Translations under genes and position numbers: made by a program
Shown: positions 1 to 9,771 of the stretch, piece by piece
Layout: every line of letters begins with the position of its first letter
Numbering within the stretch: position 1 is the first letter of the stretch
IMG/VR virus record: IMGVR_UViG_3300046323_000419
Span: 1-64,000 of that record
Origin: a virus
Length of the DNA: 64,000 bases
Strand: one strand, 5' to 3'
The notes under the pieces: generated by a model
Seen by the model: the letters and a program-made list of their open reading frames with translations, nothing else
The model's database searches: none
What the model was told of the DNA's origin: nothing

Positions 1-148
1 TATCTTCTTGAATAAAATGACCATCTTTAGAAATGGCTTGAGGCTCCGATTTAGAGCCTCCTATTTTACCAATTGCTGAAATAATTTTATTATCTTTTTG
101 TAGAAATAATTCTGGATCTGTACCTAAAGTGATATTTTTAATTTTCAT
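1..148 (-). CDS. phiEco32-like COOH-NH2 ligase type 2 (N-terminal part, truncated by window edge)
   Basis: Hand-translated from ATG at 148: MKIKNITLGTDPELFLQKDNKIISAIGKIGGSKSEPQAISKDGHFIQED; the GxDPE, GGxKxxP and QED motifs fit this family; lies next to ATP-grasp and GATase genes. Confidence 0.85.
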   Translation of the reverse strand, partial: MKIKNITLGTDPELFLQKDNKIISAIGKIGGSKSEPQAISKDGHFIQED

Positions 149-157
149 ATTTTTTTA

Positions 158-1147
158 TTAAATTGGAGTTTCTTGTTCTTCATAATAATCTTGATGGTCT
201 TCTTCATAATGATTATCCTCTTCATCATATTGATTATTTTTCCAATAATCTAAAGGACTTTGTAAAAATTGAGAATTATTAGATTTTTTTGATTTTTTAA
301 ATTCTTTTAAATATTTATCAATTAAATTTAAACACATTAAGGATGTTCTTCTTTCGCAATGACTCCATTCGGGATGACCTTGGATACATAAAGAATTTGT
401 ATTTTTATAATATACAATTTCAGGTTCTAAGAAATCTTTTGATAATTCAATTTCTTCATTATCACCATTGAGATAAGTTTTACTTTGAAAATATTCAGAA
501 TATGCAATTAATTCATAATCTTTTTTATTTAAATCGAATGGATATAACATTTGATGATGTGAAGAAGTAATATTATATCTCATTTTATTGTTTAAAATCA
601 TTGAATGATCTCTACAATGACCTTCTACGTGTTGAATTAGTCTTCCTCCACTTAAAACTGTTAATAACTGTGAGCCACGACATATAGAAAGTAGAAAAGA
701 ATGTCCTCTAAATTTATTAAATGTTTCAATTTCCTTTTGATCTCTAGAAATATTAATACTGGTATATTTTCCAACTCTTTCATTATATTGTGCAGGATTA
801 ACATCTTCACCTCCTGTAAATAATACTAAATCAATATCTTTTGTATTTTTTACATCTATTGTTTTATGAACAATAACTTCATATTTTTCATTTAAATATG
901 AAACATAATCTAAAGATGAAGCATCGTTTGCAATTACAATATTTAAAATTTGTTTTACTTCAGGTTCTTTAATAACATTATTCAAATAATTATATATAGT
1001 TTCCACTTTATTTAATATTTCTTCACCTTCAATTTCTTCATACAAATTAGCTGAAATACAAGTGTTTAAAAATGTTTTAATTATACTTTTATTAGTAGTT
1101 ACATCTAATTTATATGATTGTATTTTTTTTAATAATTCTGGATTCAT
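158..1147 (-). CDS. class I glutamine amidotransferase (peptidase C26 / gamma-glutamyl hydrolase-like) with N-terminal extension
   Basis: FTGGEDV, ICRGSQ nucleophile elbow, SSHHQ, QGHPE. Confidence 0.9.
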   Translation of the reverse strand: MNPELLKKIQSYKLDVTTNKSIIKTFLNTCISANLYEEIEGEEILNKVETIYNYLNNVIKEPEVKQILNIVIANDASSLDYVSYLNEKYEVIVHKTIDVKNTKDIDLVLFTGGEDVNPAQYNERVGKYTSINISRDQKEIETFNKFRGHSFLLSICRGSQLLTVLSGGRLIQHVEGHCRDHSMILNNKMRYNITSSHHQMLYPFDLNKKDYELIAYSEYFQSKTYLNGDNEEIELSKDFLEPEIVYYKNTNSLCIQGHPEWSHCERRTSLMCLNLIDKYLKEFKKSKKSNNSQFLQSPLDYWKNNQYDEEDNHYEEDHQDYYEEQETPI

Positions 1148-1992
1148 TTGTTATTATATTTATCTATTAATAATTTTGGTAAAATTTCTATATATTTTTG
1201 ACCTGTAATTTCTCCAAAACTGGCAGCACTACAGCTTTCAAATATAACCCATTCAGGATTTTCTCTTTCAATTCCATCTTTAGCACCTTGAACACCTACG
1301 TCAAATGCGCAAATGTCTAATCCTAAAGCATTTTTTGCTTTAATACAATCTGCAACAATATCATCCCAATTCTTAGGTTTCTTAAATGATGGATTTTCTT
1401 CTAATACCCAATTGCAAACATCATCATGACGTTGCCAAGTACCTTCAGGAGCATCATTTTTAACTAATTTTCTACAAGTATAGAAACAACCAAATTTAGT
1501 TACATGTAATCTATATTCTCTAGTCATTTTTACAAATTTTTCAAATATATAATTATCAAGATTCTTATTTGGTAACCAAGCTAAAAACTCTTCTTCAGTA
1601 TTAAATTTAGTATTACCAATACCTCTTGAACCAAAGTGAGATTTTGCTACAATAGGATAAGGTAACTCTTCAATTTCAATATCATTATTTTCATCATCTT
1701 TAATTGCAAAATAATAAAGACCATCATCATCTATTTGATAAGTAAACCAATTAGCAGTTTTAACACCGACTTCAGTAAATTTCTGTTTCATTAACAATTT
1801 AGAAGCTGAGTTTTTAACTGCTTGAATAGTATTAATTTCCAATCTACCATCTGACTCTGTTGACGATCCAAGTCTTATCACAGATCTAAATGGTAATAAT
1901 GGTAATGTTTGATTCTTAGCTCTTAAAATTGAGTGAGATGGATGCCTACTAAGTAACATCGGACGGAATAATTTATATTTTTTTTTAATCAT
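1144..1992 (-). CDS. ATP-grasp peptide/amide ligase (RimK-like fold)
   Basis: YPIVAK, GSRGIG loop, EYRLHV, CAFDV, IFESCSA. Confidence 0.85.
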   Translation of the reverse strand: MIKKKYKLFRPMLLSRHPSHSILRAKNQTLPLLPFRSVIRLGSSTESDGRLEINTIQAVKNSASKLLMKQKFTEVGVKTANWFTYQIDDDGLYYFAIKDDENNDIEIEELPYPIVAKSHFGSRGIGNTKFNTEEEFLAWLPNKNLDNYIFEKFVKMTREYRLHVTKFGCFYTCRKLVKNDAPEGTWQRHDDVCNWVLEENPSFKKPKNWDDIVADCIKAKNALGLDICAFDVGVQGAKDGIERENPEWVIFESCSAASFGEITGQKYIEILPKLLIDKYNNK

Positions 1993-2692
1993 TGTTTAAA
2001 TTTAATAAGTGATTAATTAATCTGATACTAAAATCATCTCTTTTATCTTCTGGATGCCACTGAACTGTGTGTGCAGGATAATTTGGAAAATAAGTTAATG
2101 CTTCAATACAACCTTCTTCCCAATGTTCTTTTTCTTTTCCATCATATCTACCAATTACTGTTGCATTTTCAGGACAATCTGCAACTACTTGATGATGTCT
2201 ACTATTTACATCAAAATTTAAATCATTATAATCATGCATTGTAGGAATTGTATGTTTAATAAAGTCATAGGTTTCAACTTTATGCATTGTTTTAACCCCA
2301 TCATTAGAGGGGTTAGTTTCATGATACATGTGCTGAATTAATTTAGCTCCAAAATGAACAGCTAAACTTTGATGTCCACGACAAATACCAAATATGGGAA
2401 TTTTAGCCTCAATATATTTAGGTAATAAAACTCTATCAAATCTCTCTTTTTGCATACAGGGTGAACCTGTATAAATATGAGTATCATCTTCAGGTGATAA
2501 ATATCGATAAGGATCTACATCTTGACCACCTGGCATTACCAATAAATCTATATCTCTTATATGTTTTTCAAACGGTGAGATTAGAGATACTTCTCCAAAT
2601 TGTTGCCAAAAGAATAAATATGGTTTAGAAATTCCAAAACTATTTTCTCCTGTAAAATGTCCTATCAGGGCTATTTTTTTTATATTGTTCAT
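1985..2692 (-). CDS. class I glutamine amidotransferase (peptidase C26, PuuD-like)
   Basis: PGGQDVDP, GICRGHQ, VNSRHHQ, VQWHPE. Confidence 0.92.
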   Translation of the reverse strand: MNNIKKIALIGHFTGENSFGISKPYLFFWQQFGEVSLISPFEKHIRDIDLLVMPGGQDVDPYRYLSPEDDTHIYTGSPCMQKERFDRVLLPKYIEAKIPIFGICRGHQSLAVHFGAKLIQHMYHETNPSNDGVKTMHKVETYDFIKHTIPTMHDYNDLNFDVNSRHHQVVADCPENATVIGRYDGKEKEHWEEGCIEALTYFPNYPAHTVQWHPEDKRDDFSIRLINHLLNLNND

Positions 2693-2698
2693 TATTTT

Positions 2699-3112
2699 TT
2701 AATTATTTGTAACACTTGACCACGATTTTTCTTCATTTTTATGTAAAACCCAATCTCCAGATTCTACAATAGAATCTTTAGATAATTCATTTACATAAAT
2801 ATATGTATATGATTTACCCCAAGGTGTATTAATTTCAATTCTATCATAGAAAGTTGATTTCTCTCCAGGATAATATCCTTCTAATCTATTTAAATGGTTT
2901 AAAGTATGTTCGTCAACTTCATAAACTTCCATTACAACAGAATGATTTCCATTTAATTTCAATCCTGGATAAGCCGAAAGTGAATGTAAGGTATATTCTG
3001 GTTCTGTTGTAAATGTTCCTTTATATTCAGAATTTGATAAATAATATTGATGGTTTCCCATTCCACGTCTTAAACTACCATAACAAGCAACCAATGTTTT
3101 ATTTTTTCCCAT
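2699..3112 (-). CDS. gamma-glutamylcyclotransferase (AIG2-like)
   Basis: YGSLRRG, AYPGL, EVYEV, LNRLEGY, SGDW. Confidence 0.92.
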   Translation of the reverse strand: MGKNKTLVACYGSLRRGMGNHQYYLSNSEYKGTFTTEPEYTLHSLSAYPGLKLNGNHSVVMEVYEVDEHTLNHLNRLEGYYPGEKSTFYDRIEINTPWGKSYTYIYVNELSKDSIVESGDWVLHKNEEKSWSSVTNN

Positions 3113-3627
3113 TATAATGTTAATGATTTGTTACCCATTACTTTTTTATAATTCAAATATTCAACCCAATCACCATTGACTATAAGATTTTCTTTAGATT
3201 GTTCAACATTTGTAAAATATATTATAATTTTACCAAATGGTGATAACACTTCTTGTTTCATATAATCTTGTGGGTATTCTTCAAGTGATGGATAATAGTT
3301 ATAACTTCTTTCAATTTTATCTAAGGTGATTTCATCTATTTCCCAAACTTCTATTTTAATAGAATTATTTCCATTAGTTTCAACAACACAATTATCATCC
3401 TCATCTATATTATACATATTATAAATAGGTTCTGTAGAATAAGATCCTGTTAATTTACAATTTATTTTATTTAACATTACATTTAAAGAACCATCTTTTC
3501 TATAATCATCATATATACCTACTAAAAACTTTTTTTCCATTTGTGATTGTTTTTTTAATTCCTTCTTTTCCTTTTTTAACTGAGCTCTACTTTTGTAACC
3601 ATCAGATTGTTTGTTAACTTTTCTCAT
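3112..3627 (-). CDS. divergent gamma-glutamylcyclotransferase-like protein
   Basis: Aligns by eye with the neighbouring GGCT (TEPIY, EVWEID, LDKIE, SPFGK, NGDW), but the YGSL motif has become YDDY; basic N-terminal extension. Confidence 0.75.
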   Translation of the reverse strand: MRKVNKQSDGYKSRAQLKKEKKELKKQSQMEKKFLVGIYDDYRKDGSLNVMLNKINCKLTGSYSTEPIYNMYNIDEDDNCVVETNGNNSIKIEVWEIDEITLDKIERSYNYYPSLEEYPQDYMKQEVLSPFGKIIIYFTNVEQSKENLIVNGDWVEYLNYKKVMGNKSLTL

Positions 3628-4076
3628 AACTCTTTAATAGTTACATTTAATACATTATTTGTTCTAGGATTTTTAAATTCGTGAATATGTTTCCAACCAT
3701 TTTTATCTAAAGTTTTCATTTGTGGTGTATTTGATTTTAAATCTGTACACATTAATAATCCGTATTCTAAATGTTTTGCAATATCAATTCTAAAGTTATT
3801 TAAAAGTGAATTGACACCTTTATCTCTGAATTTAATATTTACATATGTCCCTGTACTAATACATATTCCACAACAACCTACCATTTGCAAAAGAGTAAAT
3901 TGAGATATTAATTCGTTTTCTAAATTAACAACTTGAATTTGAAGACCTTTATAAGTATCTTTAACATATACTAAATCTCCTAATGTTAAAGTTTTATAAT
4001 TTCCATACACACCATATTGTATAATTACATCTTGATCTAATAATTCTTTTAACTGTTTTGTATATTTTTCTATCAT
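3624..4076 (-). CDS. GNAT-like acetyltransferase
   Basis: VNIKFRDKGVNSLL resembles the acetyl-CoA binding motif A; NTPQMKTLDKNGWK resembles motif B. Confidence 0.6.
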   Translation of the reverse strand: MIEKYTKQLKELLDQDVIIQYGVYGNYKTLTLGDLVYVKDTYKGLQIQVVNLENELISQFTLLQMVGCCGICISTGTYVNIKFRDKGVNSLLNNFRIDIAKHLEYGLLMCTDLKSNTPQMKTLDKNGWKHIHEFKNPRTNNVLNVTIKEL

Positions 4077-4609
4077 ATTTGTTTTATTTCAGATGTAACT
4101 TTTATTTCATTATCTAAATTTTTTAATTCAATGTATCTATAATATTCACCATATTCACAATCATAATTTAAAAATTCAATTAATTCATCAGGATTTTTAG
4201 ATTTTAAAAAATTAATTAAATTACTAACTTTAAGATGTTTAGATTTAAACTCTTTTTGTAATTTATTAAACTCTTCAATACAATTTTCTTTTTTACAGTA
4301 GAAATATTTAGCGTCTTCTATTAAAATTTCTTTATTTGTTTGTTTTTGATATGCTCTATATTTCCCGTTCATATCTACTCTATGAGATTCTTTTTCTACA
4401 AATAATCCTTGTAAATAATCACATAATAATATAGTTGTTTCAGAAGCTTCTGTTGAAATTCCGTTTATTGCAAGTAATCCACAAAACATATTATTTCGAG
4501 TTTTAGCTTTTTTTAAATCTATTGTATGAATATTTGTTTCATCAACATAATATACTATAGCTTGCTCTAATATATCATAATTGTCTTTTGTTAAAAATGT
4601 ATTTTTCAT
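4073..4609 (-). CDS. hypothetical protein
   Basis: 178 aa ORF coupled to the downstream gene by an ATGA overlap. Confidence 0.7.
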   Translation of the reverse strand: MKNTFLTKDNYDILEQAIVYYVDETNIHTIDLKKAKTRNNMFCGLLAINGISTEASETTILLCDYLQGLFVEKESHRVDMNGKYRAYQKQTNKEILIEDAKYFYCKKENCIEEFNKLQKEFKSKHLKVSNLINFLKSKNPDELIEFLNYDCEYGEYYRYIELKNLDNEIKVTSEIKQI

Positions 4610-4644
4610 AATTTTTTTTTATTTATTAATATTTTTTTATATTT

Positions 4645-5670
4645 TTAAAAAGGTAATAATGTTTCATATATTAATATATGTTCTGCTTGTTCTTTACCGT
4701 AATTTTTAACTAAATCTGAAAAATCTTTAGATTGATATTTATCAGGAATAAAACTATCAACTAATCCAAATTCTTTAGCAAATTTATTTGCAAATATTCT
4801 CCCCCAATTAGGATCTTTATCAAAATCATTATCATATAATAATTCAATATCTGTAAATCTAGATTCTAACTGTTTAAATATATGTTTTTTTGGTAATACA
4901 TTCTCAGATTGCATTGCAATTGCTGGTATTTTTGTAATTTCATATAATGACATTACATCTTTCAATGATTTAGTTATTATTAAAGTAATTCCAGATTCTG
5001 GTAATTGAGTCCATCCTTGCCATACAGAATTATTATGATTATTAATCCATTTATAATTTTCACTAAAAGGTTGATAAATTTTATATGTTTCAATACCATC
5101 TTTCATTTCAATAAAACAATATGCATATTTATCAGCGGGAAAACAATTATTTCCAATAAATATATAACTTATAGGTTGTACATTAAAGAATTCTAATGTT
5201 TCTTTACTAATACTAAACTGTCTCCAAAATAATACATCGTGCGATTGCCATTCTCTAGCTTTTTTACCTAAATAATAACCTGTATATTTAGATAACATAT
5301 CATCTTTAATAATTCTAACTTTAGGTGTATTATCACCACTTTTAGGATATATTTTACATATATAATCATCTTGAAGATTAAAATCATTTGCAACTTTACT
5401 TAACGCTTCAAAATATGTTAAACCGTCTCTTAATCTTAAAAACTGTATAAAATCTCCTTTTCCAAGCTTAAAATCATTAAAACATATTTCATTACCTTCT
5501 CCAACAAAGAATCCAAATGAAGCCTTGTTTTCCTTTCTTAGAGGCGATAATATTAGTTTACCTAACATTACTTCATCATCTATATAATGTTGAAATATTT
5601 CTAATTCGTTAAAGTATTTTAAAATCTCAGATTTAGATATTAATTGTTTTTCTTTATTTAAATTAAACAT
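4645..5670 (-). CDS. DNA primase (crAss-type, TOPRIM)
   Basis: SPLRKENKASF N-terminal domain, ITKSLKDVM, YDNDFD (DxD). Confidence 0.85.
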   Translation of the reverse strand: MFNLNKEKQLISKSEILKYFNELEIFQHYIDDEVMLGKLILSPLRKENKASFGFFVGEGNEICFNDFKLGKGDFIQFLRLRDGLTYFEALSKVANDFNLQDDYICKIYPKSGDNTPKVRIIKDDMLSKYTGYYLGKKAREWQSHDVLFWRQFSISKETLEFFNVQPISYIFIGNNCFPADKYAYCFIEMKDGIETYKIYQPFSENYKWINNHNNSVWQGWTQLPESGITLIITKSLKDVMSLYEITKIPAIAMQSENVLPKKHIFKQLESRFTDIELLYDNDFDKDPNWGRIFANKFAKEFGLVDSFIPDKYQSKDFSDLVKNYGKEQAEHILIYETLLPF

Positions 5671-5672
5671 AA

Positions 5673-5816
5673 TTAATTTTCTAATAGTTTATAATAATTA
5701 CCTAAATAATAATATTCATCTATATAATTATTATGAATCGTTTCTATTGGTATTTTTTTACATCTATTTTCTATTTCTTTAGCTTTAGCAACTAGTTTTT
5801 CAAATATTTCTTTCAT
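5673..5816 (-). CDS. small hypothetical protein (47 aa)
   Basis: Hand-translated MKEIFEKLVAKAKEIENRC...LLEN; stop lies 2 nt before the primase start. Confidence 0.55.
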   Translation of the reverse strand: MKEIFEKLVAKAKEIENRCKKIPIETIHNNYIDEYYYLGNYYKLLEN

Positions 5817-5841
5817 AATTTTTTAATTTTAGTTAATATTG

Positions 5842-5946
5842 AGGTTGAGGCAGGGTTTGAACCTGCACGAGAATATTTTATTGTATAGTTTATTATCCCA
5901 GCGAACCACTATACCTCACCGCGTCTACCAATTCCGCCACTCAACC
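5842..5946 (-). tRNA. atypical tRNA-like element (Leu-type D arm, anticodon arm replaced by an insertion)
   Basis: Acceptor GGTTGAG/CTCAACC, D arm GCGGAATTGGTAGACGC, T arm GCAGG-TTCAAAC-CCTGC; central part contains a GTATAGT/ACTATAC stem and no 7-nt anticodon loop. Confidence 0.7.
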
Positions 5947-6023
5947 ACCATTATAAATTATCTACTATCACCTCACACCAAATTTGTAGATAGGATTGGT
6001 TACTTAATTTATAATATTATTTA

Positions 6024-6584
6024 TTACCAAATATCAGCAGTCTTTTTAACTTCTGTACCTTCACTATCTGCTTTTGGAGCATCAGCTTCAGGACGTTCTA
6101 AAATATCTGTATTACTTGGTTTCAATCTATCAAAACTAGCATTTTGTTTTTGAATGAAATTAAACATTCTCAAACCTAAGTATTTAGATGGTTTAGCTGT
6201 ATATCCATAAGATACAAATACATCTACTTTTTTACCATCTGCGTTTTCTTTAATAACTTTGAATAATGTATTTAAAGCATCTATATATCCATTTACTTCA
6301 GGATATACAAAGTTATCATCAACTACCGCATCTGCAATGGATTTAACACGTTGATACGTCATTTGTTGACGTTTTTCATCATCTTCCGAATTGATATAAA
6401 ATCCTTGATTAATTGGCATACCACCTGATTCATCAGATACTACTAATTTATAATCTGGATAACTATCTGGTTCATCAACTTTTCTTTTTTCAATCGTTAC
6501 ATTAACTCCTATTGCTTTTCCTGCAATTCCATTATTAAATACTGCTGACCCTGCTACTTTTTCATTTAGATTAAATGTACTCAT
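6024..6584 (-). CDS. replication-module protein, possibly ssDNA-binding
   Basis: Between AAA ATPase and primase; acidic tail ending in DIW; function inferred from context only. Confidence 0.5.
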   Translation of the reverse strand: MSTFNLNEKVAGSAVFNNGIAGKAIGVNVTIEKRKVDEPDSYPDYKLVVSDESGGMPINQGFYINSEDDEKRQQMTYQRVKSIADAVVDDNFVYPEVNGYIDALNTLFKVIKENADGKKVDVFVSYGYTAKPSKYLGLRMFNFIQKQNASFDRLKPSNTDILERPEADAPKADSEGTEVKKTADIW

Positions 6585-6739
6585 ATTCTTTATTTATTTT
6601 ATTTATTGGCTTATATATTTATTTAAAATAAGGTTTTTAAAATACCCCCAGAACCTATTAACTGTGCTAACCTACGATTTAGTTGGTGTCATTATTTCTA
6701 AGAGGATTTACCAAGTCTTCGTTCCTGTGTACTTTAGGC

Positions 6740-7507
6740 TTATTCTATAAATATTTTATCCCAATGTGAAGTAAATTTACCATTTTCATCGGATTCTAAT
6801 AATACAATTTCTTGATTTTTAAGATGTTCTGGTCTAGCACCAACAGATAATGATTCTGCGGTTTGAAAGTTTACAATAGTTTTATTATCTTTACGATAAA
6901 CATAACCGATTGCATCAGAATGTGAACATAATATAGAAGGTGTTTTACCTGCTAAATCAATCATCCTCTGAACTAATTCCTTGCCAGAAAATTCTACAAT
7001 CTTATCTTTTGTATGAGCTGAAATAATTAATGTTTCACATAATTCTTCTAATTCTTGTACAATTAATAGTATTGCATTTCTTAAAATACCCCAACCTTGA
7101 CCATTAGGTAATGTTAATATATCATCTCCTTGAAAGTTCCTACCTATTGGGGTAGCTAAATGCATTTTAAGAGCTAAATCTGGAGCATAGTCATTCTCTA
7201 ATGCAGAAATAGTATCTATTGTGATATATTTGTAAACATAACCTTTATTTGCAACATTTGCTTCTTTAATCTTATTAATGACTTGTTTTAAAGCTATGAT
7301 AGGTTTAATATCTTCTTTTCTAGCAATATCTCTTACATTAATTTTTAAAGCGTTTACGTATCCTGCACCGTCTTCTAAATCCAATATTAAATTATTTTCT
7401 AACATTGCCAAAGCTGTAGTTTTGCCTGCTTTTGGAGATGAAAATAATATTAATTTATCTGGATTTACTTGTGTAATTGCTATTTTAGTTGTTGGTAACT
7501 CCACCAT
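6740..7507 (-). CDS. AAA-family P-loop ATPase (Sak4/AAA_24-like)
   Basis: Walker A SSPKAGKT, LDLEDG, Walker B ITIDT, ISAH. Confidence 0.85.
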   Translation of the reverse strand: MVELPTTKIAITQVNPDKLILFSSPKAGKTTALAMLENNLILDLEDGAGYVNALKINVRDIARKEDIKPIIALKQVINKIKEANVANKGYVYKYITIDTISALENDYAPDLALKMHLATPIGRNFQGDDILTLPNGQGWGILRNAILLIVQELEELCETLIISAHTKDKIVEFSGKELVQRMIDLAGKTPSILCSHSDAIGYVYRKDNKTIVNFQTAESLSVGARPEHLKNQEIVLLESDENGKFTSHWDKIFIE

Positions 7508-7985
7508 TATTTAAATAGTTATTAAGTTCGTTATTATATGCATTTGCAGCATCTATTTCATTTGTAAATCTACCAACATATCTGTTTTTACCAGTAGTAT
7601 TAATATAAACTAAATATTTATCACTTAATTTATTTTTAGAAACTCCTGTATATTTACTTGTAGTATTTACTTTATCTTTAGAAACATTTTTTCTAAAACT
7701 AATTATTTGTAAATTTTCTAGTTTATTGTTTAATTTGTTATTATCAATATGATCTACAACTATTTTTCGATTATTTAATTTATAACCTTCAAAAAAAGTT
7801 AAACCTAATAATTGATGTACCATAACATAAACAGATTTTTTATTTTTTCTTAACGTTAGTTTTAAATATCCCGAATTATGTAAACTAGGTTTTAATATTT
7901 TATTTCTAGGACCTATAACATCTGCATTTTTATTAATTTTATAACTATTTTCAAAACCTGGTATATCATACCATTCTTCTATCAT
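7485..7985 (-). CDS. NUMOD4-HNH-AP2 homing endonuclease
   Basis: EEWYDIPGFE (NUMOD4), VDHIDNNKLNNKLENL (HNH), SKYTGV...AANAY (AP2-like). Confidence 0.9.
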   Translation of the reverse strand: MIEEWYDIPGFENSYKINKNADVIGPRNKILKPSLHNSGYLKLTLRKNKKSVYVMVHQLLGLTFFEGYKLNNRKIVVDHIDNNKLNNKLENLQIISFRKNVSKDKVNTTSKYTGVSKNKLSDKYLVYINTTGKNRYVGRFTNEIDAANAYNNELNNYLNNGGVTNN

Positions 7986-8014
7986 ATTTAATTTATTTAT
8001 TTGTTAATTATTAA

Positions 8015-8022
8015 CAAAGATA
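8015..8022 (-). promoter_or_regulatory. Bacteroidetes-type -7 promoter element
   Basis: TATCTTTG on the minus strand, 30 nt upstream of the HNH start codon. Confidence 0.65.
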
Positions 8023-8024
8023 TA

Positions 8025-8064
8025 AATTGTTTTTAGATATTTTTAATTGTTTTTAGATATTTTT
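8025..8064. repeat. 20-bp tandem direct repeat x2
   Basis: aattgtttttagatattttt occurs twice in tandem. Confidence 0.85.
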
Positions 8065-8097
8065 ATTTTACATCTTCAATTTTTTGTATTATTCAAT

Positions 8098-8640
8098 TTA
8101 ATTATAGAAAAAATTATTAACAGAATTTTCATTATAATTTTTAAAATCCAAAGTAGATTTAATTAATGTTTTAGAAGGTTTCCAAGAATGACCCTCATTA
8201 AAATAATTACTTGTATTAATTTGAGAATAAAAATCACAAAATCGTTTTAATTTATTTCTATATTTAGATTTACCAAATTGTAATTTTTTAAAAAATACAT
8301 CATGCATTGGAATAGCTGGATTTATACTACCCAAATTTTCCCATAATAATCTAATAGTTGCACAAATTAGCATATTTTTATATTTATTACCTTGACATTT
8401 AAATTTAAAATATTCTTTCGTTATTTCAGCATTCAAATCATACATATCTGAAACATATTGAAGATAAAACATTTTATATTTTATTGTTTTTTCACAATCT
8501 AAACTATATAAACTTATGAAATCTACATTATAAATCATACTACTATAACAACTTGTATTCGTGTAAAATTTCTCAACATTATTTATTGTATAACTCCATG
8601 TTACAGGACTAGAACTTCCCCAATTATAATTTTTTTTCAT
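8098..8640 (-). CDS. hypothetical protein
   Basis: 180 aa ORF in operon orientation. Confidence 0.7.
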   Translation of the reverse strand: MKKNYNWGSSSPVTWSYTINNVEKFYTNTSCYSSMIYNVDFISLYSLDCEKTIKYKMFYLQYVSDMYDLNAEITKEYFKFKCQGNKYKNMLICATIRLLWENLGSINPAIPMHDVFFKKLQFGKSKYRNKLKRFCDFYSQINTSNYFNEGHSWKPSKTLIKSTLDFKNYNENSVNNFFYN

Positions 8641-8646
8641 TTTTCA

Positions 8647-9771
8647 TTATTTTTTAATATTTTTCATAAATTCATATACTTTATTTAATTCTTCTGTATT
8701 ATTACTATGTGGTAATTCTCGAAAATAATTTACTGCACCATCAAAATATAATGGACAAATAGTTCCACCACCACCTTCACGTCCTCCTAATATTTCAAGA
8801 AATCTAATATTATCCCTAAATTTAGTTATATCATAACCCATATATTCGGGTATTTCATGCCTAAAAGGACTAAATAATCCAAGTATATAATCAAAATCAC
8901 GCTGAGTCATTTTATTATCACCTAAACCATCTAATGAAGGTTTAAGTTTATTATACTTTTTATTTTCAATACTTTCTTGAGCTTGAGCTTGTTGTTGTAC
9001 AACTACGGGAATATATTTAAATCTATTTCTAAGTTTAATTAAATAATCAGAACTAAGTTTGCCTATTGATTCATGTAAAGTCATAGGTAAACCAGTATCT
9101 CTATTTTTCTCAGGTTGAATCAATGAAACATGATCTATAATTATAATTACGTACTCCTCAGGATCGTTAGCTTTATAATAATCTTCAACTTCAATAAATA
9201 CTCCAGGTTTTGTTTCAATTTTTCTTTTAAAAATTTCACCATTTGCTAAAGCATAATCTCTAACTGTTGCATAAATTCCATATCCATTTCTAATATCGTC
9301 TATAAATTCAACAATTTCTTCAATTTTTCTAAAATAAGGTTCATATTTAGAAATTAAATTTAAATTTATTTCTGATAAAATATTATCTTCTTTACTAGAT
9401 CTTAAATCTTTAGGTGCTATTCTAATTCCTTCTTTAATATAAAGAATGTTTGAAAATGCTGATAACATTTTTTGTTCAGCAGTCATTTCTAAAGTGAAAT
9501 AGAAAATTTTTAATCTAATATCTAAACCTTTATCAATAACTTGTTGAATTGTATTATAAAGAAATAGCCAATCTGTAATTTGTGATTTACCAACTTTTGA
9601 ATTTGCAGATACTAAAATTGACTTACCTTGTTCAATACCAGGCATTTCATTTTCAAATCTAGGAAGGCCTAACGGAATAGAATTAATTTTACCTGATAAT
9701 AACCTATTTCTTTTCTCTAAAATATTTTTATAAGTTCTATCGAAAAGACTTATTTTATTTTCAATCTTCAT
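8647..9771 (-). CDS. dnaB: DnaB-like replicative helicase
   Basis: Walker A ANSKVGKS, YFTLEM, IIIDHVSL, VVVQQQ, DFDYILGL. Confidence 0.88.
   Translation of the reverse strand: MKIENKISLFDRTYKNILEKRNRLLSGKINSIPLGLPRFENEMPGIEQGKSILVSANSKVGKSQITDWLFLYNTIQQVIDKGLDIRLKIFYFTLEMTAEQKMLSAFSNILYIKEGIRIAPKDLRSSKEDNILSEINLNLISKYEPYFRKIEEIVEFIDDIRNGYGIYATVRDYALANGEIFKRKIETKPGVFIEVEDYYKANDPEEYVIIIIDHVSLIQPEKNRDTGLPMTLHESIGKLSSDYLIKLRNRFKYIPVVVQQQAQAQESIENKKYNKLKPSLDGLGDNKMTQRDFDYILGLFSPFRHEIPEYMGYDITKFRDNIRFLEILGGREGGGGTICPLYFDGAVNYFRELPHSNNTEELNKVYEFMKNIKK

Follow-up and report, generated by a model that had tools for sequence, protein, structure and literature searches.

The 64,000-nt stretch analyzed here (the window, positions 1 to 64,000 of the viral record IMGVR_UViG_3300046323_000419 in IMG/VR) opens with seven tightly packed genes at positions 1-4076 that form part of an amidoligase cassette, a set of putative carboxylate-amine ligases accompanied by amidotransferase and gamma-glutamyl hydrolase folds. 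Judged from its proteins, the block is a crAss-like (Steigviridae/Asinivirinae-type), enlarged copy of the amidoligase cassette of phiEco32-type phages. Its primase and cassette proteins are nearest to those of Crassvirales, with 41% identity between its primase and that of Cellulophaga phage phi14:2. Every gene at the left edge lies on the minus strand, and the cassette junctions are either overlaps of 1-8 nt or gaps of 1-9 nt. The original prediction, made from the letters of the window, had described seven contiguous, mostly coupled genes running off the window, which agrees with the open reading frames (ORFs), their strand, and their tight junctions. It had also assigned them to a GNAT-like protein, two gamma-glutamylcyclotransferases (GGCTs), two C26 glutamine amidotransferases (GATases), an ATP-grasp enzyme, and a COOH-NH2 ligase, and these folds were recovered by Pfam, PHROG, NCBIfam, and PDB profiles and by the homologs.

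The window covers the first 64 kb of its viral contig, which has 100,363 bp. The contig ends repeat 130 nt (window 1-130 versus genome 100234-100363) with a single mismatch, C/T at window position 57; thus, the genome is closed or terminally redundant, and the cassette carries on at the other contig end. IMG/VR classes the record as linear, though CheckV rates it complete. With the ends joined, the COOH-NH2 ligase ORF spans the contig junction and is followed by genes for a class II N-terminal nucleophile (Ntn) GATase, hereafter GATII, and for an Amidoligase_2 protein. The original prediction had pointed to the left of position 1 for further amidoligase or class II GATase genes, and both are there; its count of two ligases falls short, the actual complement being three ATP-dependent ligases plus the class II GATase.

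The cassette is bounded upstream by a primase and downstream by a diverged uracil-DNA glycosylase (UDG), and it is transcribed together with the replication genes, from primase to UDG. After the primase, the products in order of transcription have 178, 150, 171, 137, 235, 282, 329, 270, 638, 576, and then 234 amino acids (aa). No terminator-like site was detected on the minus (coding) strand within 1-6200. A scan for sigma-70 promoters was set aside, as it returned 53 sites versus 52 expected, i.e., chance level. The features are as follows, with window positions unless the genome is named.

4645-5670, minus strand: DNA primase, upstream boundary (phrog_12622, E 2.8e-57), ending in ...YETLLPF
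4073-4609, minus strand: orphan ORF of 178 aa between the primase and the cassette
3624-4076, minus strand: GNAT-like protein, 150 aa, with matches to PF00583 in 10 of 14 homologs
3112-3627, minus strand: GGCTb, 171 aa, diverged paralog with a GGCT fold
2699-3112, minus strand: GGCTa, 137 aa, GGACT/AIG2-like gamma-glutamylcyclotransferase (PF06094, E 8.5e-19; phrog_2520, E 3.8e-23)
1985-2692, minus strand: C26a, 235 aa, Peptidase_C26/class I GATase-fold amidohydrolase (PF07722, E 1.7e-25)
1144-1992, minus strand: RimK-like ATP-grasp ligase, 282 aa (phrog_2599, E 2.7e-21; TIGR00768, E 7e-9)
158-1147, minus strand: C26b, 329 aa, Peptidase_C26/class I GATase-fold amidohydrolase (PF07722, E 2.8e-14; phrog_7218, E 7e-34)
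1-148 (5' end, 49 codons) plus genome 99569-100233 (L004:15570-16234), minus strand: COOH-NH2 ligase type 2, 270 aa, ORF across the contig junction
Genome 97650-99566 (L004:13651-15567), minus strand: GATII, class II (Ntn) GATase, 638 aa (GATase_6, E 1.3e-6)
Genome 95918-97648 (L004:11919-13649), minus strand, ATG at 97648: Amidoligase_2, 576 aa (PF12224, E 3.7e-5, 24.2 bits, cut-off 22)
Genome 95233-95937 (L004:11234-11938), minus strand: diverged UDG, 234 aa, positioned as in crAss-like phages

L004:16235-16364 is the terminal 130-nt segment that repeats window 1-130. The 178-aa ORF matched nothing in Pfam, PHROG, or NCBIfam, has no homolog in 11 related loci, and lies outside the conserved cassette. 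At the other boundary, the 234-aa protein has no Pfam match and is 23-25% identical to the annotated UDGs that occupy the same position in phi14:2 and in the uncultured gut phage cr108_1; it may have diverged functionally.

In crAss-like phages, the cassette consists of a strict four-gene core and exchangeable accessories. This division was read from 77 loci on crAss-size viral contigs (L026-L102) that were fetched with the Amidoligase_2 profile and scored with purpose-built hidden Markov models, 74 of them with the full upstream flank. The ATP-grasp ligase, the COOH-NH2 ligase, GATII, and Amidoligase_2 are each encoded in 74 of these 74 loci, C26 in 70 (two or more copies in 45), and GGCT in 61 (two copies in 16). 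In 76 of the 77 loci, the gene immediately upstream of Amidoligase_2 is GATII, and a primase is found no more than 10 kb from the cassette in 72 of the 74. The original prediction had staked its reading on co-conservation in related phages, which these counts bear out for the core, C26, and GGCT. The GNAT gene, which it had listed in the cluster, is not a conserved part of it and turned up in just 4 of the 74 loci and in 2 of 9 close relatives.

The cassette of phiEco32-type phages is known from sequence and was reportedly described in 2009 by Iyer, Abhiman, Burroughs, and Aravind (Mol Biosyst 5:1636); the corresponding Pfam families are PF14395 and PF12224. Both versions have a COOH-NH2 ligase type 2, an Amidoligase_2 with an adjacent class II GATase, a RimK-like ATP-grasp enzyme, a GGCT, and a C26-type amidohydrolase, all co-directional, so that the link to phiEco32-like clusters drawn in the original prediction stands. 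The same families occur together in Bruynoghevirus (LUZ24, PaP3, tf), where the GATase also adjoins Amidoligase_2, in a phiEco32-like phage (Gordonclarkvirinae), and in a cyanophage. Protein identity to the Gordonclarkvirinae and Bruynoghevirus carriers is 23-38%, and the gene order differs, with GATII preceding Amidoligase_2 in the present copy. Further differences are the two C26 genes, the second, degenerate GGCT, the GNAT gene with its CCG motif, the GATII propeptide, and the N-terminal domain of Amidoligase_2, whereas two paralogous proteins of ~320 aa and of no known function in Bruynoghevirus are absent here.

The cassette has already been annotated in Crassvirales, namely, in phi14:2 and cr108_1. 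The closest cultured carrier is phi14:2 (gp048-gp052; KC821624; Crassvirales, Steigviridae, Asinivirinae), at 30-49% identity. It shares the position between primase and UDG and the order GGCT, ATP-grasp, COOH-NH2 ligase, 638-aa GATII with leader, and Amidoligase_2 with N-terminal domain, but it has one GGCT, no C26, and no GNAT, and its Amidoligase_2 ends in ...SDFWK. Similarly, cr108_1 (MT774385; Asinivirinae, Pipoluvirus) carries the ATP-grasp, one C26 (42% identical to C26b), the COOH-NH2 ligase, GATII, and Amidoligase_2, followed by UDG; unlike the present copy, it has no GGCT, two paralogous unknowns (329 and 300 aa) after the ATP-grasp, a 492-aa GATII starting with Met-Cys, and an Amidoligase_2 lacking the N-terminal domain. 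In the Leptolyngbya phage Lbo-JY46 (PP438436, 1736-14494; locus L021), the cassette lies directly downstream of the nicotinamide adenine dinucleotide salvage genes PncB (nicotinate phosphoribosyltransferase) and PrsA (phosphoribosyl pyrophosphate synthetase) and comprises an SNO-type GATase, a GGCT, a COOH-NH2 ligase, a C26, a 536-aa ATP-grasp, a 729-aa GATII, Amidoligase_2, and a second C26. According to carrier-phage papers that cite Iyer et al. 2009 (PMC11945000, PMC10580990, PMC11706807), the cassette is a putative module for peptidoglycan modification or for a secondary metabolite and might block superinfection. No experimental product or activity of the cassette was found in the literature searched, which is in line with the original prediction's view that no product is established.

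Three ATP-dependent carboxylate-amine ligases are recognizable by their motifs: the RimK-like ATP-grasp enzyme, the COOH-NH2 ligase type 2, and Amidoligase_2 of the glutamine synthetase (GS) fold. The 282-aa ATP-grasp protein has no Pfam match above cut-off, with PF02222 and PF08443 weakly matched by relatives, and its profile retrieved exclusively ATP-grasp enzymes from the PDB (PurK, Ddl, LysX). K117, GSRGIGN, E151, and D231 are present. At the Mg-binding E-x-N motif, the clade of the window has E-S-C, and the related loci L014 and L015, phi14:2, and cr108_1 have E-[VI]-N. An AlphaFold2 model from an eight-row alignment was too poor for use, at a predicted local distance difference test (pLDDT) score of 50. 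The ATP-grasp has 1,611 homologs in metagenomes. With the ends joined, the COOH-NH2 ligase matches PF14395 (E 1.8e-6, 27.8 bits, cut-off 25) and phrog_3815 (E 3e-69) and carries the GS-type motifs GTDPE, EYN, GGH, and EYR; this protein alone matches 307 phage records. The acidic, His, and Arg motifs of the GS fold are kept in both this ligase and Amidoligase_2 and are invariant out to 46% identity. Amidoligase_2 has, in addition, an N-terminal domain of ~190 aa, for which the best score against the ESM Atlas was 0.78, under the useful range, and a profile search of the PDB with Amidoligase_2 matched nothing. When GATII (29-638) and the catalytic domain of Amidoligase_2 (residues 185-500) were modeled as a complex, the score was 0.00, with controls not run, which counts neither for nor against binding.

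Some cassette genes are interrupted in related phages. Some close relatives have an ORF inserted within the COOH-NH2 ligase gene, which is in two pieces in L005, L010, L026, and L030. The ORF inside the split gene of L010 (12266-13039, plus strand) encodes a LAGLIDADG homing endonuclease (PF14528, E 9.5e-15), which points to an intron or intein within a cassette gene. C26b is in pieces in the related locus L013.

The catalytic Cys of GATII and its motifs R-G, G-H-T-R, N-A-H-P, H-N-G, and D-S-E are all invariant in the alignment, and Cys29 aligns with Cys1 of the solved PurF and GlmS structures. Ahead of Cys29 lies a hydrophobic leader of 28 aa. A homologous leader is present in ~22 of 65 representatives of the GATII family (about a third), and the remaining ones start with Met-Cys. 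Autocatalytic propeptide removal is known for some class II enzymes. GATII is therefore predicted to be made as a proenzyme in one subclade, with a leader whose removal would fit autocatalysis. Free variation of the residue ahead of the catalytic Cys among homologs (S, N, Y, G, A, T, or F) suits neither a signal peptidase site nor a lipobox and led us to reject a lipoprotein or Sec signal as a reading of the leader. The ~350-aa C-terminal part of GATII matched 110 cluster representatives of 1.8 billion and lies C-terminal to such an amidotransferase in the full-length matches. Its AlphaFold2 model (pLDDT 85) combines a beta-hairpin-rich domain with a long helical hairpin. A Foldseek search against the PDB returned nothing at E ≤ 0.001, the top weak rows being choline-binding/CROP repeat proteins (E 0.3), and VIA-align matched the generic helical hairpin (Z ~8) and left the beta domain without a match.

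Among the accessories, both C26 proteins keep the Cys-His-Glu triad (Cys104, His212, and Glu214 in C26a; Cys156, His258, and Glu260 in C26b). C26a shares 42% identity with its counterpart in the cyanophage Lbo-JY46, and C26b shares 42-51% with its counterparts in cr108_1 and L014. A recent duplication was rejected since each has closer orthologs in distant phages than in its neighbor; the sequence comparison places them in old, separate orthologue groups. C26b further has a clade-specific N-terminal extension of ~65 aa and an acidic C-terminal tail (...YEEQETPI), neither of which occurs in L014 or cr108_1; the C26b tails end in ETPI, NLPI, or NLPL. Gamma-glutamyl-CDP-amidate hydrolase and, for C26a, PuuD are among the NCBIfam neighbors of the C26 proteins, all far below cut-off.

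GGCTa has the YGSLR motif, and the catalytic Glu of its LEGY motif is conserved across relatives. Its paralog GGCTb (BLASTP between the two groups, 1e-11 to 1e-21) scores below the Pfam cut-off with both GGACT (E 9e-4) and AH_C (E 7.5e-5), has YDDYR in place of YGSL, and carries Tyr or Ser at the position of the catalytic Glu in five of the five clade members aligned. It has a Lys-rich N-terminus of 33 aa. Since GGCTb lacks the catalytic hallmarks and is nevertheless conserved at 59-73% identity within the clade, it is probably not a cyclotransferase and probably has a noncatalytic or altered role. The duplicated gamma-glutamyl enzymes of the original prediction are accordingly there in number, with two C26 and two GGCT-fold proteins, but they are not simple duplicates, given the age of the C26 groups and the missing YGSL and Glu of GGCTb.

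The 150-aa GNAT-like protein has no profile match of its own. In its family of 130 homologs, a few of them named GNAT by JGI, PF00583 was matched by 10 of 14 homologs (best E 1.7e-5) and PF13508 by 9. Weak PDB profile matches to acetyltransferases (E 0.26-0.75) and an invariant G-C-C-G-I-C motif also characterize the family. The gene is probably a genuine but optional cassette partner. On the 452-kb jumbo-phage contig L025 (IMGVR_UViG_3300035661_000001), positions 1806-9498 encode two COOH-NH2_lig proteins of ~500 aa, a GGACT protein of 324 aa, and three tandem GNAT-CCG paralogs; ATP-grasp, GATII, and Amidoligase_2 were undetected in the stretch examined.

In the clade of the window, Amidoligase_2 has a hypervariable linker of ~70 aa that leads to a C-terminal E-x-[DN]-D-[SL]-[PS]-[FY], the tip itself being [DN]-D-x-[PS]-[FY]. 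The last residue is F or Y in 112 of 120 cluster representatives, and [DN][DGN]xx[FY] fits 106 of the 120; the window's protein ends in ...VDDNLF, and relatives end in ...DDNLPF or ...DDLPY. The C-terminal tip of bacterial single-stranded DNA-binding protein (SSB) is DDD[IL]PF. The Amidoligase_2 tip resembles this acidic-aromatic tail and also the -PF end of the neighboring primase, which suggests, as a reading that we hold improbable, tethering of Amidoligase_2 to a replication protein. The tip is limited to the closest relatives (phi14:2 lacks it), and, as far as could be found, it is a feature new in print for the cassette. Of the 72 loci with a primase, 56 encode one with the C-terminus [LIVM]-P-F, and 68 of the 1,674 plus-strand ORFs of at least 100 aa in these loci end in PF. 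These 68 are the 56 primases, 4 Amidoligase_2 proteins, and 8 others; PF thus closes 12 of 1,602 nonprimase ORFs, and the primase end looks like a conserved C-terminal docking tip. PF00436 (SSB) has no match in the phage genome. A 113-aa ORF among structural/cargo genes (genome 78220-78561, plus strand) ends in ...NEDNDDTCVPF, an SSB-like acidic tail.

Several known pathways attach a gamma-glutamyl group and later remove it, as do PuuA/PuuD for putrescine, BtrJ/BtrG for butirosin, and EgtA/EgtC for ergothioneine. They combine a gamma-glutamyl ligase, of the GS or ATP-grasp fold, with a remover of the C26, Ntn-GATase-like, or GGCT type and are mechanistic analogs of the cassette. They differ in having one ligase and further tailoring enzymes; the cassette has three ligases and lacks oxidoreductases and pyridoxal phosphate enzymes, and the NCBIfam scores are far below cut-off. 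Because its enzyme classes are those of pathways that attach, elaborate, and remove a gamma-glutamyl group, we read the core as a putative multistep assembly of amide bonds on a small amine or short peptide, from which the gamma-glutamyl group would later be removed, and we give this reading a roughly even chance of being right. In such an assembly, an amine of low molecular weight or a short peptide would gain between one and three amide bonds from the ligases, and at least one of these bonds would be gamma-glutamyl. GATII would either feed Amidoligase_2 with ammonia from glutamine or hydrolyze a gamma-glutamyl amide. The C26 enzymes and GGCTa would then take off the gamma-glutamyl group as glutamate or 5-oxoproline. 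In this scheme, the four-gene core would do the chemistry, and C26, GGCT, and GNAT would be interchangeable tailoring or recycling accessories. Some points weigh against such an assembly. A measured substrate, product, or activity was found for no cassette member. GS-fold ligases can act on proteins, as PafA/Dop do in pupylation, and RimK acts on a protein C-terminus, so a protein target is possible. The Cys that replaces the usual Mg-binding Asn in the clade's ATP-grasp, along with the lost hallmarks of GGCTb, indicates that part of the set may be noncatalytic. Last, a replication-linked role is as compatible as a free-metabolite role with the SSB-like tip of Amidoligase_2 and with the cassette's place in the replication module.

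The original prediction had gone further, to a write/erase cycle on a protein or envelope target serving superinfection exclusion or anti-defense, and none of these is shown by anything in the DNA. Glutamine-dependent amidation of the peptidoglycan stem peptide is a function of MurT, a Mur ligase, and GatD, a class I GATase. The cassette likewise has a glutamine amidotransferase gene beside an ATP-dependent ligase gene, and the pair could act as one amidating enzyme, but it combines a GS-fold ligase with a class II Ntn GATase. On this model, the ligases would add or amidate stem-peptide residues as MurT/GatD amidates D-iso-Glu and the hydrolases would trim them, to exclude other phages or prepare lysis. 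Modification of cell wall precursors in this sense is attributed to Iyer et al. 2009 and is quoted in carrier-phage papers as the standing hypothesis (PMC11945000, PMC10580990). A class II GATase beside an ATP-dependent ligase fits glutamine-dependent carboxylate amidation, and the hydrophobic leader of GATII could hold a proenzyme at the membrane. We nonetheless consider a cell wall role unlikely. The cassette has no Mur ligase, transpeptidase, flippase, or export signal, all its enzymes are of cytoplasmic types, and it always sits among replication genes, never lysis genes. Two thirds of the GATII family are leaderless, and the variable residue before the catalytic Cys suits neither signal peptidase nor lipobox. 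Amidoligase-GATase pairs also occur in viruses that were assigned in silico, with uncertainty, to murein-less archaea (PMC11706807). Quite unlikely in our view is the tagging and untagging of proteins, which corresponds to the write/erase proposal of the original prediction. Here, a GS-fold ligase (as PafA) or a RimK/TTL-like ATP-grasp would attach glutamate or a peptide to a protein of the host or phage, with the C26, Ntn, and GGCT enzymes as deamidases or isopeptidases. Indeed, the RimK family is the one nearest to the ATP-grasp, gamma-glutamyl-epsilon-lysine is a substrate of GGACT enzymes, and two cassette enzymes carry acidic C-terminal tails. Yet the 74 loci encode no conserved small tag or carrier protein in or beside the cassette, most known C26 and GGCT enzymes act on small molecules, and the acidic tails are clade specific rather than cassette-wide.

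The location of the cassette between primase and UDG in crAss-like phages, and beside primase/helicase in Bruynoghevirus, invites the proposal that the targets of modification by replisome-tethered enzymes are DNA bases, nucleotides, or proteins of the replisome, one example being the extension of a base modification of the amino acid type. The SSB-like Amidoligase_2 tip and the -PF ends of the primases agree with it, and amidoligase and amidotransferase genes lie beside thymidine-hypermodification genes in viral contigs (Lee et al. 2021, PMC8989533). However, the cassette proteins yielded no nucleic-acid-binding or glycosylase-like domain, and the tip does not extend past the closest relatives. 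In the complete genome, ThyX is present and neither PF00303 (ThyA-type hydroxymethylase) nor PF12851 (TET/JBP) has a match, 5-HMUDK and aGPT-Pplase not having been searched; with no ThyA-type hydroxymethylase or TET/JBP, there is no source of 5-hydroxymethylpyrimidine, and a role in thymidine hypermodification lacks its starting enzymes. We regard this proposal as decidedly improbable. Its narrower form, in which the clade's cassette would be physically coupled to the replisome, the Amidoligase_2 and primase tips docking on the same hub and the pathway acting at forks on DNA, nucleotide pools, or replisome proteins instead of the cell wall, is likewise improbable. Very improbable, finally, is polyamine neutralization, a special case of the small-molecule reading in which GS-fold ligases would gamma-glutamylate putrescine or spermidine as PuuA/PauA do, GNAT would acetylate, and C26 would take the PuuD role, all to keep the polyamine pool under control while infection proceeds. 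The Puu/Pau pathways use matching enzyme types (a C26 hydrolase with a GS-like ligase), the NCBIfam neighbors of C26a include PuuD, and some GNATs are polyamine acetyltransferases. The cassette nevertheless lacks a polyamine transporter, oxidase, or aminotransferase, and three different ligases and the Ntn amidotransferase would be left unexplained. The early protein gp9 of the carrier LUZ24 bound the host gamma-glutamylpolyamine synthetase PauA2 in a yeast two-hybrid assay (PMC4635203), but this interaction is unconfirmed and involves a different gene.

The cassette is among the most widespread phage enzyme sets with no assigned product, a question that has stood since 2009 and that the present copy does not solve. 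What it contributes is the distinction between a four-gene core and accessories, a predicted GATII proenzyme in one subclade, a GGCT that is probably not an enzyme, and the SSB-like tip, which as a putative docking element provides a concrete handle for finding a partner. Close relatives are plentiful in metagenomes and phi14:2 exists as a cultured relative; by itself, the present copy is no more testable than cultured carriers. Elsewhere in the replication region, an HNH/NUMOD4 homing-endonuclease-like ORF (window 7485-7985, minus strand; PF13392, E 2e-6) has the AAA_24 ATPase gene on one side and the next replication gene on the other.

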